Below, one piece after another: positions 651 to 5,995 of a stretch of DNA of 8,059 nt. Every line of letters starts with the position of its first letter. The first letter of the stretch is position 1. The translations under genes were made by a program, and so were the position numbers. The notes under the pieces were generated by a model, which saw only the letters and a program-made list of their open reading frames with translations, ran no database searches and was not told the origin of the DNA. The stretch is taken from IMG/VR virus record IMGVR_UViG_2778261541_000003, one strand, 5' to 3'. This DNA is from a virus. Its lineage: Duplodnaviria; Heunggongvirae; Uroviricota; Caudoviricetes.

Positions 651-1082
651 CTATTCAGGTATTTCAATTCCAAAACCATCTGCATCCCATGAGTTTTCAC
701 AGATGATGTAACCTAGTTCATTGAGCTTATTAAATGTTTTTTCAAAGATGATCTGGTAATCATTATCTGCAAGTGATTCCAGTTCAAGGTCATTAAGGTT
801 TATATAAAAACTTGTATGTCCAAGTGTTATTTTCTTATTGATTTCATTAAAAGTTCTTTTGAAAATAATATTTGATATTTCATGCCGTGCATTGTTTGCA
901 ATAATTTTTGCTTCATAAGCAGAAATTACGTCATCTTCATGAATATCTTTCAGAAAGCTGGTGTCAAGACGTTGTACTATTTCAGCGTTCATTGAGCGCT
1001 TATTGGCTTTTGCAGAAATTTCTATTTTTTCTTTTACTTCAACGGGAAGTCTGATCCTTAGTTGTGGATCTTCTCTGCTCAT
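651..1082 (-). CDS. mnt: Mnt-like ribbon-helix-helix (Arc/MetJ superfamily) repressor with an extra ~95-aa C-terminal domain of unknown function
   Basis: ORF track 651..1112 starts at TTG; in-frame ATG at 1082..1080 preceded by GGTGA. N-terminus MSREDPQLRIRLPVEVKEKIEISAKANKRSMNAEIVQRLD aligns closely with P22 Mnt as I recall it (MARDDPHFNFRMPMEVREKLKFRAEANGRSMNSELLQIV). Divergent from an arc-ant pair as in P22 immI. Confidence 0.8.
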   Translation of the reverse strand: MSREDPQLRIRLPVEVKEKIEISAKANKRSMNAEIVQRLDTSFLKDIHEDDVISAYEAKIIANNARHEISNIIFKRTFNEINKKITLGHTSFYINLNDLELESLADNDYQIIFEKTFNKLNELGYIICENSWDADGFGIEIPE

Positions 1083-1119: not shown

Positions 1120-1188
1120 AGTATGCCTCACCGTGTGCTTGACATCAATGACGCACGGTGTGACAATTGTTTTGCCCCACGGTGGGGC
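1120..1188. promoter_or_regulatory. Divergent promoter/operator region between the mnt-like and arc-like genes
   Basis: Plus strand: -35 TTGACA 1139-1144, 17-bp spacer, -10 GACAAT 1162-1167. Minus strand: -35 TTGATG (rc of 1143-1148), 17-bp spacer, -10 CATACT (rc of 1120-1125). 15-bp perfect palindrome GCCCCACGGTGGGGC at 1174-1188 sits at the predicted rightward start site and shares the CCACGGTGG core with the P22 Mnt operator as I recall it. Inverted 7-mers CACCGTG (1129-1135) and CACGGTG (1154-1160) flank the overlapping -35 elements. Confidence 0.5.
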
Positions 1189-1202
1189 TAAGGAGATATG
1201 AA

Positions 1203-1370
1203 ATGCAAAAAGCAAAAGAGATGTGTCAACGACGAGTTCGTTTTCCGGACGATGTGAAGTTAGCTATTGAAAGAAATGGCGAAAAAGAATGCCGAAAGTT
1301 CAATACAGAGATTATCTATCAGCTGAGGAAAGTGTATGGACTCACTGGTGAGAAGAATAGCGTGGCATAA
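1203..1370 (+). CDS. arc: Arc-like ribbon-helix-helix transcriptional repressor (55 aa)
   Basis: ORF track 1167..1370 starts at TTG; in-frame ATG at 1203 has AAGGAG (1190-1195) 7 nt upstream. RRVRFPDDVKLAIERNGEKECRKFNTEIIYQLRK resembles the P22 Arc RHH fold (FNLRWPREV...ENGRSVNSEIYQRV). Size and position (immediately upstream of ant) match arc. Confidence 0.75.
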   Translation: MQKAKEMCQRRVRFPDDVKLAIERNGEKECRKFNTEIIYQLRKVYGLTGEKNSVA

Positions 1371-1442
1371 AACAGCGAAGCCCAACGGTGGCCAGACCGT
1401 CAGGGCTTCAGTATCGTAAAACTACGTATAGGAATTAACGAC
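1367..1442 (-). ncRNA. Candidate sar-like antisense RNA covering the ant ribosome-binding site
   Basis: Minus-strand sigma70-like promoter (-35 TTGATA, 17-bp spacer, -10 TATACT) predicts a start near 1441-1443. The transcript would be antisense to the ant SD (AGGAA 1430-1434) and end at a minus-strand hairpin GAAGCCC...GGGCTTC (1377-1409) followed by GCUGUUUUAU. Predicted length ~75 nt, comparable to P22 sar (~68 nt, from memory). Confidence 0.5.
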
Positions 1443-2387
1443 ATGACGAGTATAGCAACAGCGGTATCTACTATCAACGTGCCATTCCACGGCGCAGAAC
1501 TTTATGTTGTCAATCACAACGGAGAACCGTACACCCCAATGAAACCTATCGTTGAAGGCATGGGTATGGATTGGGCTTCACAGTTTACGAAAATGAAGCA
1601 GCGGTTTAAAACCTGCATTGTGAAAATCACAATGCAGCTTCCTGGGGATGAACAGCGCCGTGAGATTATTTGTTTGGCACTTCGCAAACTTGCTGGCTGG
1701 TTGCAAACCATCAGCCCTAACAAAGTCCGCCCTGAAATCCGCGACAAGGTAATCCAGTATCAGGAAGAGTGTGACGATGTTCTCTACGAGTACTGGACTA
1801 AAGGCCATGTGGTTAACCCACGCAAAGCTAAAAAGGCGTTGCCGGGTAAAATAACCACTGAACAGCAGGAAGCCATTAAACAACTCGTCATGAGTCGCGG
1901 TCAGTCTCTGCCAAAAGAAAAACAGGCTAAGGCGATGATCACCATGTGGTCGTCACTGAAATCTCATTTTGGCTGTTCGTACAAAGAAATTGATGAAGAT
2001 CAATTCGCCGAAGCGTTGTCTCTTGTTGCTCGGGTTCCGCTTGAAGGGGAGCATCTCCCTGCTGGATCTGCATCAGAGAATGATGAAGTGGCAGTCAAGA
2101 TGTTAGATGCGCTTCGTGAGGCAATTAAAACACAGACAAAATGTTATGGTTATCCGCTGAAGCCCGGCTACCGCAGTCTGATTCATTCGCCGTCTGGTGT
2201 TCTCGGCCTGACGGAGAACTCACTGCTGATGAATCTGCTTAACCAGTTACAGGACGACGGGCACGATGTATCGGGCGCGGCGGCGGAGCTGACCACCATG
2301 TTCTGCTACATCGTCGGTGTGAGCAAATGCCTGCGTGATATCCAGACCCACGCGGAGTACATCAACGACAAGGCTGGGTTCTTCTGA
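1443..2387 (+). CDS. ant: Phage antirepressor (Ant; P22-antirepressor-like N-terminal domain plus conserved C-terminal domain)
   Basis: 314-aa ORF; AGGAA 8 nt upstream of ATG. Follows arc as in immI. N-terminal region (...LAGWLQTISPNKVRPEIRDKVIQYQEECDDVLYEYWTKG) resembles the P22 antirepressor N-domain family as I recall it. C-terminal ~80 aa are shared with two other genes in the window. Confidence 0.88.
   Translation: MTSIATAVSTINVPFHGAELYVVNHNGEPYTPMKPIVEGMGMDWASQFTKMKQRFKTCIVKITMQLPGDEQRREIICLALRKLAGWLQTISPNKVRPEIRDKVIQYQEECDDVLYEYWTKGHVVNPRKAKKALPGKITTEQQEAIKQLVMSRGQSLPKEKQAKAMITMWSSLKSHFGCSYKEIDEDQFAEALSLVARVPLEGEHLPAGSASENDEVAVKMLDALREAIKTQTKCYGYPLKPGYRSLIHSPSGVLGLTENSLLMNLLNQLQDDGHDVSGAAAELTTMFCYIVGVSKCLRDIQTHAEYINDKAGFF
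1449..1477 (-). promoter_or_regulatory. Candidate sigma70 promoter for the sar-like antisense RNA
   Basis: -35 TTGATA = rc of 1472-1477; 17-bp spacer; -10 TATACT = rc of 1449-1454. Lies inside the first codons of ant. Confidence 0.5.
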
Positions 2388-3818: not shown

Positions 3819-3874
3819 ATCGCGCCTCCTTTACCTTTAAGGTAATATTACGCGAATCTACATCACATCGCCAA
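3819..3874 (-). promoter_or_regulatory. Candidate sigma70 promoter with palindromic operator for the 3651-3818 / 3187-3630 operon
   Basis: Minus strand: -35 TTGGCG (rc of 3869-3874), 18-bp spacer, -10 TAATAT (rc of 3845-3850), immediately followed by perfect 15-bp palindrome TTACCTTTAAGGTAA (3831-3845) over the predicted start site, then AGGAGG. Confidence 0.5.
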
Positions 3875-3903: not shown

Positions 3904-4141
3904 GCCGCCCGTCAGAAGAATCCTGCTTTGTCGCTGATGTACTCCGCGTGCGTCTGGATATCACGCAGGCATTTGCTCACACCGACGATGTAGCAGAACA
4001 TGGTGGTCAGCTCCGCCGCCGCGCCCGATACATCGTGCCCGTCGTCCTGTAACTGGTTAAGCAGATTCATCAGCAGTGAGTTCTCCGTCAGGCCGAGAAC
4101 ACCAGACGGCGAGTGAATCAGGCTGCGGTAGCCGGGCTTCA
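3882..4141. repeat. Inverted repeat copy B (partner of 2157-2418)
   Basis: Reverse complement matches copy A; covers the last ~77 codons of the second antirepressor plus its terminator hairpin. Confidence 0.9.
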
Positions 4142-4568
4142 GTGGGGCGCTGTATTCTTTTTTGTCTTCCAGCTTGATCGCCTCCATAATGGCGGGCATG
4201 AAGCCTGACAAGACCTTCTCCACTTTTGTTTCTTGTTGTCTTAAACGTTTCTCGCATTCAATGAAGTAGCGTCGCACCTGGCGACCTTTTTCGTTACGCT
4301 CGACCATCGCCAGCTCTTTGGCTGTATCAAGGGTGAGGTGGTACTCTTTGCGGTTGTGGCCGCCTCTACCAGATGTTTGCTTTCCCAAATTGGAAAGCAA
4401 AATATAGTCTTGATTTTCAATGAATTCGTATTCTGATATGCGATTTGTAATCCATGCTGCAAACACCTTTTTAACACCTAAAAAAGCGTGCAGATCGCGG
4501 GCATTACAAAGTAGGGCTGTTTCGTTAGATATAGTGCCGTTGAATACGGGGATGAGTTGAGCGTTCAT
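3912..4568 (-). CDS. Phage antirepressor, second copy: different N-terminal domain (Bro-N/ORF6N/Rha-like, tentative) fused to the same C-terminal domain as Ant
   Basis: 218-aa ORF; ATG at 4568..4566 with GGAGA SD (rc of 4576-4580). N-terminal part (...[33 protein letters not shown]...[32 protein letters not shown]) resembles phage antirepressor N-terminal families. C-terminal 77 aa are ~97% identical to Ant (1443-2387). Confidence 0.88.
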
Positions 4569-4596: not shown

Positions 4597-4804
4597 CACC
4601 ACCGCTGAGACCAATCAGATGGTGGTGAACTGAACGGAGTTGGTCTTACCGGCCTAAGTGGTACCGGCGTCCTTTCGGACCCCCATTCAGCCCACCATAA
4701 TTCTGGCATGACTGTGCTATACGCATAAAAAAACCACGTCTGGCGTGGTATGCGCCACTTAGTAATCCGGGAGACCAATCCCGGCACTGGATTTTGCCAG
4801 TGCC
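4597..4804 (-). other. Hairpin-rich untranslated leader upstream of the second antirepressor
   Basis: H1 at 4597-4627: CACCACC-g-CTGA-[gaccaa]-TCAG-at-GGTGGTG. H4 at 4767-4784: CCGGGA-[gaccaa]-TCCCGG, same hexaloop. H5 at 4783-4804: GGCACTGG-attttg-CCAGTGCC. No convincing ORF in this ~400 bp (track ORF 4596..4928 rejected). Confidence 0.45.
4726..4749 (-). terminator. Candidate intrinsic terminator or attenuator within the leader (minus strand)
   Basis: Minus-strand RNA ACCACG-CCAGA-CGUGGU followed by UUUUUUU (plus-strand A-run 4727-4733). Sits ~160 nt upstream of the second antirepressor start codon. Confidence 0.45.
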
Positions 4805-4839
4805 CGATTACTATGGCACAAGAGGAGTGCAATGTAAAT

Positions 4840-4948
4840 TTACCGCAAAGGTAATGATAAACGCGAAGAAATATTAAAATCAACCGTATTTGGTTGATTG
4901 CGTTTAACGCTTGATCACCTGAAAGCAAGATATTACCTTTAAGGTAAT
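4840..4948. promoter_or_regulatory. Two palindromic TTACC-N5-GGTAA operator-like sites
   Basis: Site 1 TTACC-gcaaa-GGTAA at 4840-4854. Site 2 is a perfect 17-bp palindrome ATTACCTTTAAGGTAAT at 4932-4948. Centres are ~94 bp apart. Site 2 lies ~20 bp upstream of the start of ORF 4968-5696 and at the distal end of the minus-strand leader. Confidence 0.5.
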
Positions 4949-5696: not shown

Positions 5697-5720
5697 GCCG
5701 CTCTTGCGGCCTTTAAATTT
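5696..5720 (+). terminator. Intrinsic terminator after the Cys-rich membrane protein gene
   Basis: GGCCGC-TCTT-GCGGCC (5696-5711) followed by TTTAAATTT; stem overlaps the stop codon TAG 5694-5696. Confidence 0.6.
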
Positions 5721-5976
5721 ACCGGGTTTGTTTTCGTAATTGTTCGGCACAATAGTCGAGATGTGTTTGCAGATCCCGCATAGACATCTGTGAGCTGGTG
5801 ACGTAGTTAATCAGTGCAGTCAGTTCGGCAAGTGGGCCATCGACATTAAATCCATCCTTATCGAGATCCCGGAGTAATTTCATCAAGTGCGATCCCTCCA
5901 CCAGTGACCTGACGCCTCCCGGCGTGTGAATCCTTTCGGTAAATCCGTCTTCCAGTGGATAGTGATACTGCTGCAT
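5719..5976 (-). CDS. Small stand-alone antirepressor C-terminal-domain protein (85 aa), candidate SOS-inducible mini-antirepressor
   Basis: ORF track 5719..5994 starts at TTG; in-frame ATG at 5976..5974 with GGAGA SD 7 nt upstream. PLEDGFTERIHTPGGVRSLVEGSHLMKLLRDLDKDGFNVDGPLAELTALINYVTSSQMSMRDLQTHLDY aligns over its length with the shared C-terminal domain of the two larger antirepressors ([69 protein letters not shown]). LexA box 20 bp upstream. Confidence 0.8.
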   Translation of the reverse strand: MQQYHYPLEDGFTERIHTPGGVRSLVEGSHLMKLLRDLDKDGFNVDGPLAELTALINYVTSSQMSMRDLQTHLDYCAEQLRKQTR

Positions 5977-5995
5977 CTTATCTTCTCCATGCAAT

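Follow-up and report, generated by a model that had tools for sequence, protein, structure and literature searches.

A P22 immI-type antirepressor module with three related candidate operators over back-to-back predicted promoters

The DNA analysed here is an 8,059-nucleotide stretch of a Caudoviricetes virus (IMG/VR virus record IMGVR_UViG_2778261541_000003), referred to below as the window. By its gene content it carries a P22 immI-type antirepressor module, made up of a Mnt-like gene, an Arc-like gene, the antisense RNA sar and the antirepressor gene ant; an earlier note on this DNA had named the first two genes by their likeness to mnt and arc, and Pfam, Rfam and BLASTP place both as ribbon-helix-helix (RHH) genes in a module of this type. 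The Mnt-like RHH repressor gene (654–1082, minus strand, stop codon at 651–653) encodes 143 amino acids (aa) with the N-terminus MSREDPQLRIRLP. The Arc-like RHH gene (1203–1370, plus strand), the first of the ant operon, encodes 55 aa with the N-terminus MQKAKEMCQRRVRFP and has, by sequence, a Shine-Dalgarno element (AAGGAG, 1190–1195, plus strand) 7 nt before its ATG. The sar antisense RNA (1374–1441, minus strand) spans the ribosome-binding site of ant and matches Rfam RF00262 over its full length with 45.2 bits (gathering score 43); a scan found both its promoter (TTGATA-17-TATACT, 1477–1449), placed within the beginning of ant, and its terminator (1398–1379). The antirepressor gene ant itself (1443–2387, plus strand) encodes a P22_AR_N domain (Pfam PF10547, E 1e-44), is annotated as anti-repressor Ant in Escherichia phage TL-2011b, and is predicted to be controlled from the region between the two RHH genes, which is the subject of this study.

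The Mnt-like protein matches Pfam Arc (PF03869, E 1e-14) and, by BLASTP, P22 Mnt with 32% identity over all 83 aa of the latter (E 3e-14). Its AF2 model (pLDDT 80) has an RHH fold, a long helix (residues 55–87) that aligns with the C-terminal helix region of P22 Mnt, and a small alpha/beta domain, which might serve oligomerisation or signal input and for which no convincing match was found in the PDB. At least 260 protein clusters (90% identity) make up the family, which extends over Enterobacterales with members in Escherichia, Salmonella, Klebsiella, Enterobacter, Yersinia (including Y. pestis), Proteus and Xenorhabdus; none of them has a more specific name than 'Arc family DNA-binding protein'. 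Its N-terminus, MSREDPQ(L/F)R(I/V)RLP, is almost invariant, and all 32 of 32 aligned homologues start with MSRED. The Arc-like protein has no Pfam match and matches P22 Arc weakly by BLASTP (33%, E 4e-5), but agrees with P22 arc in position and size; it is also 33% identical to the N-terminus of the Mnt-like protein, and its homologues are named 'Arc family DNA binding domain-containing protein' in their sources.

The start codons of the Mnt-like gene (1082, minus strand) and the Arc-like gene (1203) are separated by a 120-bp spacer (1083–1202), the length given in the earlier note. A promoter scan found the rightward, arc-ant promoter as TTGACA-17-GACAAT with a TG upstream (10/12 matches): its −35 hexamer lies at 1139–1144 (plus strand) and its TG-extended −10 (TGT-GACAAT) at 1159–1167, with a predicted start at about 1174. 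The leftward, mnt-like promoter is predicted from TTGATG, recognised by sequence at 1148–1143 (minus strand), and CATACT, recognised by eye at 1120–1125 (minus strand), where homologues have CATAAT; its start is predicted near 1113. The counterpart of this promoter in one homologue (L017), TTGATG-17-CATAAT, was detected by the promoter scan. The two −35 hexamers thus stand back to back and overlap by 2 bp, as the earlier note had seen, but its description of the promoters as overlapping holds for these hexamers only, since the rest of the promoters are not superimposed, unlike in P22. A P22-style leftward promoter with its −35 near 1167–1162 was also considered; it has a good TTGTCA but, by eye, no usable −10, and the conserved TTGATG-17-CATAMT was preferred.

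Three 15-bp sites, O1 to O3, are set into this arrangement. O3 (GCCCCAC-G-GTGGGGC, 1174–1188) is the palindrome GCCCCACGGTGGGGC that had already been noticed at the rightward start: a perfect 7-1-7 palindrome of two 7-nt arms about a non-self-complementary central G, covering the predicted positions +1 to +15. O2 (GACGCAC-G-GTGTGAC, 1150–1164) lies between the rightward −35 and −10, its right arm overlapping the TG-extended −10. O1 (GCCTCAC-C-GTGTGCT, 1125–1139), a degenerate hybrid, takes up the leftward promoter's spacer and borders on the rightward −35. The sequence CACGGTG in O3 (1178–1184) recurs as listed in the earlier note, at 1154–1160 and, as the complement CACCGTG, at 1129–1135, but the recurrences do not make up the single second operator over the −35 region that was proposed; instead, two full-length sites, O1 and O2, flank the overlapping −35 hexamers.

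The clustering of these sites is not that of random repeats. CACSGTG has three matches in the window against 0.67 expected, all within 56 bp (1129–1135, 1154–1160 and 1178–1184), and three copies within 60 nt were seen in none of 1000 dinucleotide shuffles. A repeat finder aligned the three copies as a 12-nt direct repeat with spacings of 25 and 24 bp, the centres of O1 and O3 being 49 bp apart, and all six half-sites of O1–O3 fit GNCNCAC-N-GTGNGNC with one mismatch in total, which lies in O1 (one mismatch against GNCNCACNGTGNGNC; O2 has none). In the 44.8-kb genome of TL-2011b, the closest phage, the consensus is matched at the three sites only. A 7-1-7 palindrome, by comparison, arose in a 120-nt region in 17 of 1000 shuffles and somewhere in the 8 kb in 685 of 1000, so that the palindrome alone is unremarkable and the case rests on place, repetition and conservation.

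Complete E. coli genomes carry the region in 38 of 5426 cases, every copy at 97.8% identity or more; since such copies are uninformative on conservation, loci ascertained through the proteins were used. The 451-bp query covering 1000–1450 is 100% identical to E. coli chromosomal prophages, and positions 600–2400 are 96% identical to TL-2011b, which was the sole match of the Arc-like protein in a tblastn search of deposited phages. Relatives of the Arc-like protein with 67–81% identity lie on contigs from Raoultella, Citrobacter, E. coli and metagenomes, which have differing phage backbones and keep the order Mnt-like gene, Arc-like gene, antirepressor gene. When ten loci ascertained through the Arc-like protein were aligned, the stretch from the mnt start to O1 proved unalignable, and the block ATTATG-O1-TTGACA-TCAATGAC-O2 was almost invariant, the rightward TTGACA completely so; O2 was followed by 8–10 variable bases, a conserved O3 and again variable sequence up to the ATG. 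The leftward −35 keeps its TTG in this alignment and varies in its last three bases. Xenorhabdus loci, at 58–60% protein identity, show the same layout.

A second set was ascertained through the N-terminus of the Mnt-like protein. A search meant for distant relatives brought in no more than the 80 closest viral contigs, giving 54 distinct regions, and the set serves as an unbiased sample rather than as a test of specificity covariation. O1 and O2 are exactly 25 bp apart in 53 of these 54 regions and 24 bp apart in one, and O3 follows 24–27 bp beyond. Over 81 distinct regions, which are related loci and hence not independent counts, and for part of which O1 and O2 (never O3) had served as search patterns, the information content amounts to 1.85 bits in O1, 1.87 in O2 and 1.63 in O3, against 0.54 in the upstream flank, 0.41 in the O2–O3 spacer and 0.56 after O3; the leftward −10 block is nearly invariant (1.92 bits). 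The O2 sequence TGACGCACGGTGTGAC occurs in 57 of 62 distinct regions ascertained via O1 alone, each exception being a single-base change, and in 9 of 10 protein-ascertained loci. Far from being absent from homologous loci, then, the palindrome is kept in place in more than 80 distinct Enterobacterales loci whose flanks have diverged. Like RHH operators in general, the sites have half-sites (GNCNCAC and GTGNGNC) symmetric about a central base pair and lie in the regulators' own intergenic region.

The family consensus, three sites of 15–17 bp about 25 bp apart, is T-GNCNCAC-N-GTGNGNC-A, and the sites fall into two classes. The arms of O1 and O3 read GYCYCAC, with C or T at −4 and mostly C at −6 (T in some O3 copies), and their one to three central bases are free, CGG, CCG, CTG, CAT, CAC and CAG all being seen. 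In nearly all homologues O1 is GCCCCAC-S-GTGGGGT; GCCTCAC-C-GTGTGCT is found in the window's lineage alone. The O2 class is a near-invariant GACGCAC-G-GTGTGAC, and its left arm is nearly invariant though it lies under no promoter element, which points to specific recognition. The earlier suggestion of an Arc-like site among the recurrences can therefore be kept for O2, the distinct-class candidate, but not for O1, which is normally of the O3 class; only O2 is a candidate Arc-like site.

Sites of the O3 type also occur elsewhere. Scans of viral contigs with the pattern TGCCCCACSGTGGGG returned mostly chance matches in GC-rich contigs, with four notable cases, all GC-rich IMG/VR contigs from outside Enterobacterales with a perfect GCCCCAC(C/G)GTGGGGC. 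In one of them (L198) a perfect GCCCCAC-C-GTGGGGC precedes an RHH gene starting MSREDHQFRLRLP, and there is no O2-type site; the others (L184, L223 and L230) carry arrays of two to four copies, the array of L230 near an RHH-like open reading frame (ORF) with RLRFRLP. A search for loci with a Mnt-like but without an Arc-like protein, made for the question of site ownership, yielded only L198 and two further IMG/VR contigs. One of these (L274) has a natural deletion in which a left arm from O1 is joined to a right arm from O3, with both −35 hexamers and O2 gone, apparently by recombination between the repeated operators; the other (L285) is a decayed remnant in which a mutated O1 and O2 remain and O3, arc and ant are lost. 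The stem of the sar terminator also resembles an operator arm: it reads GCCCAACGGTGGCC in the window (1380–1393), GCCCCACGGTGGCC, a half-perfect operator copy, in TL-2011b (L001 6780–6793), and GCCCCAACTGCGG in P22, and this likeness is probably a coincidence with the conserved stem.

P22 immI, the paradigm for such modules, has a history of forty years of study (review: PMC2629481). Like P22, the window has a leftward mnt RHH gene and a rightward arc RHH gene, sar and ant in the same order and orientation, a palindrome with the core CCACGGTGG and a central G at the start of the ant promoter, and another operator in the −35 to −10 interval of the same promoter, O2 taking the place of Oarc. In the annotation of NC_002371, P22 Omnt reads AGGTCCAC-G-GTGGACCT and Oarc reads ATGATAGAAGCACTCTACTAT. 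This comparison bears out the core match to the Mnt operator stated in the earlier note: CCACGGTGG and the ±7 positions are identical, nine central bases are shared, and O3 agrees with Omnt at 13 of 17 positions, the 9-bp core included. O3 also occupies the Mnt operator's place, with a centre that follows the −10 by 14 nt (15 nt in P22). The divergence of the outer arms holds as well, ±5 and ±6 being changed symmetrically from GT/AC in P22 to CC/GG here, and the recognition-strand residues differ too; the P22 Mnt half-site consensus is GTGGACC, bound by a tetramer (PMC2726951), and that of the window is GTGGGGC. All sequence statements of the earlier note thus stand; of its interpretation, the immI genes and the place of the Mnt operator do, and the single second operator does not.

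The window also differs from P22. P22 has two unrelated operators and the window three related ones, and the P22 Oarc sequence, with its TAGA-box half-sites, has no match in the window at up to three mismatches, O2 of the CAC-N-GTG family being found in its place. The P22 promoters Pant (14793–14821, plus strand) and Pmnt (14826–14798, minus strand) overlap fully, the −10 of one lying over the −35 of the other, whereas in the window the overlap is confined to the −35 hexamers, with about 61 bp between the predicted starts. P22 Mnt ends at about 82 aa with a coiled-coil tetramerisation domain; the Mnt-like protein exceeds it by 60 aa and has the extra alpha/beta domain. Finally, the recognition residues are His6-Asn8-Arg10 in P22 Mnt and Gln9-Asn11-Arg13 in P22 Arc, and Gln-Arg-Arg in both proteins of the window.

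In the Mnt-like recognition strand these residues are Gln6, Arg8 and Arg10, so that Arg10 alone is common with P22 Mnt; the Arc-like strand of the window, CQRRVRFP, has Gln9, Arg11 and Arg13, and reads YQ(R/K)K(V/I)RFP elsewhere, with Arg or Lys at position 11. Every half-site in the family has C at −5 (G at +5), where P22 and phage L, with Asn8, have T or A. The replacement of Asn by Arg would go with that of A:T by G:C at operator position ±5, in keeping with the usual pairing of Asn with adenine and of Arg with guanine. His6, Asn8 and Arg10 of the P22 Mnt beta-strand reportedly contact bases, according to work by Knight and Sauer. Our residue-to-base statements draw on general background and on the observed correlation, and a literature search for contacts between Mnt residues and operator bases retrieved only the half-site consensus GTGGACC and tetramer binding (PMC2726951).

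Two groups of related systems help to place this arrangement. The mnt-only or variant ant morons of the P22-like phages L, ST64T, ST104, epsilon34, Emek and CUS-3 are likewise variable cassettes before the tailspike gene (PMC2629481), and each Mnt type has a palindrome of its own with an (A/C)AC-N-GT(T/G) centre, such as AGACCAC-C-GTGGTCT in L and TAGTAC-G-GTACTA in Emek. They differ in having a single palindrome, some of them lack arc or ant, and none has GCCCCAC arms or a Gln-Arg-Arg strand. The second group, known from annotation, consists of the divergent RHH control regions of the Pseudomonas Pf inovirus PfAC03 (L014), Acetobacter phage phiAX1 (L318), Acinetobacter phage vB_AbaS_qsb1 (L317) and Pseudomonas phage UFJF_PfDIW6 (L319). 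All have three palindromes about 24–28 bp apart, the first abutting a TTGAC(A) −35 that is followed by (G/T)CAAT; the control region of PfAC03 aligns with the window, and of the full-length relatives that the Mnt-like protein has in deposited phages, the PfAC03 protein is the best (40% over 125 aa). They differ from the window in half-sites (for example TACCA-N3-TGGTA) and recognition residues; their three sites are alike, the RHH strands match where two proteins are present, and in PfAC03 an excisionase gene replaces arc-ant. Literature and annotation yielded no experimental characterisation of these four regions. The three-palindrome RHH architecture, found in unrelated phages, seems to be far older and more widespread than the P22 immI paradigm.

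Taken together, these results make it very probable that O1–O3 are RHH operators controlling both promoters. We infer the transcription starts, binding, stoichiometry and assignment of proteins to sites from sequence, and propose the following mechanism. P(ant), the rightward sigma-70 promoter, would drive the Arc-like gene and ant, and P(mnt), the leftward sigma-70 promoter, the Mnt-like gene. Each operator would be bound by an RHH repressor tetramer (a dimer of dimers) with one beta-ribbon per half-site, in which Arg8 of the Mnt-like or Arg11 of the Arc-like protein (Asn in P22) would read the G:C at ±5 (A:T in P22). In a lysogen the Mnt-like protein would occupy the GYCYCAC-class sites, blocking P(ant) from O3, as Mnt does in P22, and limiting its own promoter P(mnt) from O1. 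After infection or derepression the Arc-like protein, as the first product of P(ant), would occupy O2, at the place of Oarc, and shut P(ant) again, and sar RNA would add translational control of ant. The chances that such an immI-type control region with a division of labour is, as a whole, the right explanation seem to us about even.

The assignment of the Mnt-like protein to O3 and O1 and of the Arc-like protein to O2 is tentative, and we would put it a little short of even. For it speak the positions of the sites, which are those of P22, the operators of the Mnt lineage elsewhere, all of which contain YCAC (GGTCCAC in P22, AGACCAC in L, GGACCAC in the Pf phage PfAC03, and that of Proteus Brookers), and the contig L198, in which the RHH protein starting MSREDHQFRLRLP goes with a perfect O3-type palindrome and no O2-type site; so does the maintenance of O2 as a distinct class.

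A number of observations weigh against this picture. The arm classes are not strictly tied to their sites: in one locus (L020) they are swapped, O2 being GCCTCAC-C-GTGTGAC, O3 is of the O2 type or a hybrid in two Xenorhabdus loci, and O1 of the window is itself a hybrid. O1, in the promoter spacer, is the best palindrome in most homologues, so that self-repression by the Mnt-like protein would exceed repression of P(ant). The leftward promoter of the window, TTGATG-17-CATACT, has 8 of 12 matches and falls under the scan threshold, and the rightward −10 is weak in most homologues (GACACT). To these come the kinship of the loci and the use of O1 and O2 as search patterns described above, the latter as regards the conservation of O1 and O2, and our literature searches, which found no paper on this version of immI and no report of binding, footprints or transcripts. 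Lastly, a Gln-Arg/Lys-Arg triad is common to both proteins, both RHH strands match and all three sites are alike in qsb1 and phiAX1, and in PfAC03 the three-site layout goes with just one RHH protein.

The last points, together with the fit of all six half-sites to GNCNCAC with one mismatch in total and the interchange of arms of both classes at the same position in some loci, would be expected if both paralogous repressors used all three sites, GYCYCAC and GACGCAC tuning affinity and filling order. The proteins would then differ in timing and oligomerisation, the Mnt-like one having its extra C-terminal domain, and not in target. Acinetobacter qsb1, in which both RHH proteins carry DPQINIRVP, and Acetobacter phiAX1, in which both have Gln-His-Arg and three near-identical TACCA-N3-TGGTA sites stand in the same layout, favour this reading. 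Set against this is the left arm of O2, GACGCAC, which is nearly invariant without a promoter element where the equivalents in O1 and O3 always have pyrimidines, whereas drift would be expected in a site that is simply kept weak. The two proteins also differ in their N-terminal arms (SREDP and QKAKEMC), as in P22. There, the work of Knight and Sauer in PNAS in 1989 is said to have shown that N-terminal differences set the distinct specificities of Arc and Mnt, which we count against common targets. On balance, operators shared in this way, the main rival to our assignment, are possible but on the unlikely side.

A related and somewhat more doubtful idea is that the paralogues have converged on, or retained, a single triad and compete or cooperate on the three-operator family, positions −4 and −6 deciding the winner at each site; hybrids of the O1 type seen in the window may then take one dimer of each. 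If true, such a switch, with two repressors on shared operators, would depart from P22 and its logic of separate operators, and would suggest a simple RHH rule in which Asn at ribbon residue 8/11 goes with A:T and Arg with G:C at ±5.

Reversing the proposed assignment would make O2 the site of the Mnt-like protein, which would repress P(ant) from there and free or stimulate P(mnt) from −38 to −52, and leave O1 and O3 to the Arc-like protein. This would match the near-invariance of both the Mnt-like N-terminus and O2 with the variation of both the Arc-like strand (CQRRV, YQRKV, YQKKI, YQRKI) and O1 and O3, and the window's lineage, which alone has Arc-like Arg11 with Cys8, also alone has the divergent O1; that covariation, however, comes from a single lineage. 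It would also reproduce the regulatory logic of P22, where Mnt represses P(ant) and frees or stimulates P(mnt), and Arc represses both promoters. Since the Mnt-lineage operators of P22, L, Proteus Brookers and Pf have YCAC as in O1 and O3, unlike O2, and the MSRED-type RHH gene of L198 goes with a perfect O3-type palindrome, we regard the reversal as improbable.

That the palindrome acts instead as RNA, a 5′ stem-loop (GCCCCA-CGG-UGGGGC) of the arc-ant mRNA serving stability or translation, is very unlikely. It does cover the predicted +1 to +15, and a 46-nt segment folds at −12.3 kcal/mol, but this fold is unexceptional (z = −1.46; matched by 19 of 200 shuffles), and O1 and O2 share the motif yet sit before the predicted start. 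At −4/+4, the 42 distinct O3 variants have C/G in 13 cases, C/A in 11, T/G in 11 and T/A in three; the arms vary independently and show no compensatory variation, and a quarter of the variants would carry a C-A mismatch. The motif, moreover, matches a proven protein operator in P22. Although a lone 7-1-7 palindrome is common, O1 is degenerate in the window and the mnt-like gene is frameshifted in the closest phage record, it is extremely unlikely that the repeats arose by chance or are a relic that no longer functions in this prophage: chance is excluded by the clustering of the sites and their conservation across genera amid diverged flanks, and the mnt-like and arc-like reading frames are intact in the window.

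The frameshift in TL-2011b consists of an extra C in the 5′ part of its mnt-like gene (ATCCCTTAG against ATCCTTAG in the window; L001 about 6459, NC_019445 about 30914, corresponding to window position 1058 approximately), as a result of which the annotated coding sequence is without the RHH domain; it is either a real frameshift or a sequencing error.

At a distance of 3 kb from the P22-type module, the window contains a further antirepressor control system, which is of the P1/P7 type (4618–4816 and 3912–4568, both minus strand). Upstream of a gene with an AntA/AntB domain lie isrK (RF01394, 67.7 bits) and a C4 antisense RNA (RF01695, 61.2 bits); the a1/b1 targets of C4 match RF03163 (c4-a1b1) at 39.9 bits, below the gathering score of 46.7. 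This leftward isrK/C4-antisense-RNA/AntA module is flanked by two copies of one palindrome, TTACCTTTAAGGTAA at 3831–3845 and ATTACCTTTAAGGTAAT at 4932–4948, whose 1-nt loop rules out an RNA hairpin, so that they look like an operator pair for another repressor. The P22_AR_N antirepressor (1443–2387, plus strand) and the AntA-domain protein (3912–4568, minus strand) have in common a near-identical C-terminal stretch of about 77 aa ending in DKAGFF, to which the C-terminus of a 91-aa ORF (5719–5994, minus strand) is related; by sequence, this suggests a common effector or target-binding domain that is exchangeable.

P22 Arc and Mnt are textbook models of ribbon-helix-helix DNA recognition and of antirepressor control of lysogeny. 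In its components and logic the system described here is that of P22 immI and not a new kind of system; what is new are the three related operators, the back-to-back promoters, the arm sequence, the recognition residues and the enlarged Mnt. It represents a common and differently wired prophage version of the P22 switch, the classic means of keeping the antirepressor silent, and its many homologues offer a natural series of pairs of operator and recognition strand on which RHH specificity rules could be tested. It also identifies the cis elements that would need mutating for Ant to be derepressed, with induction or destabilisation of these prophages as the probable result.

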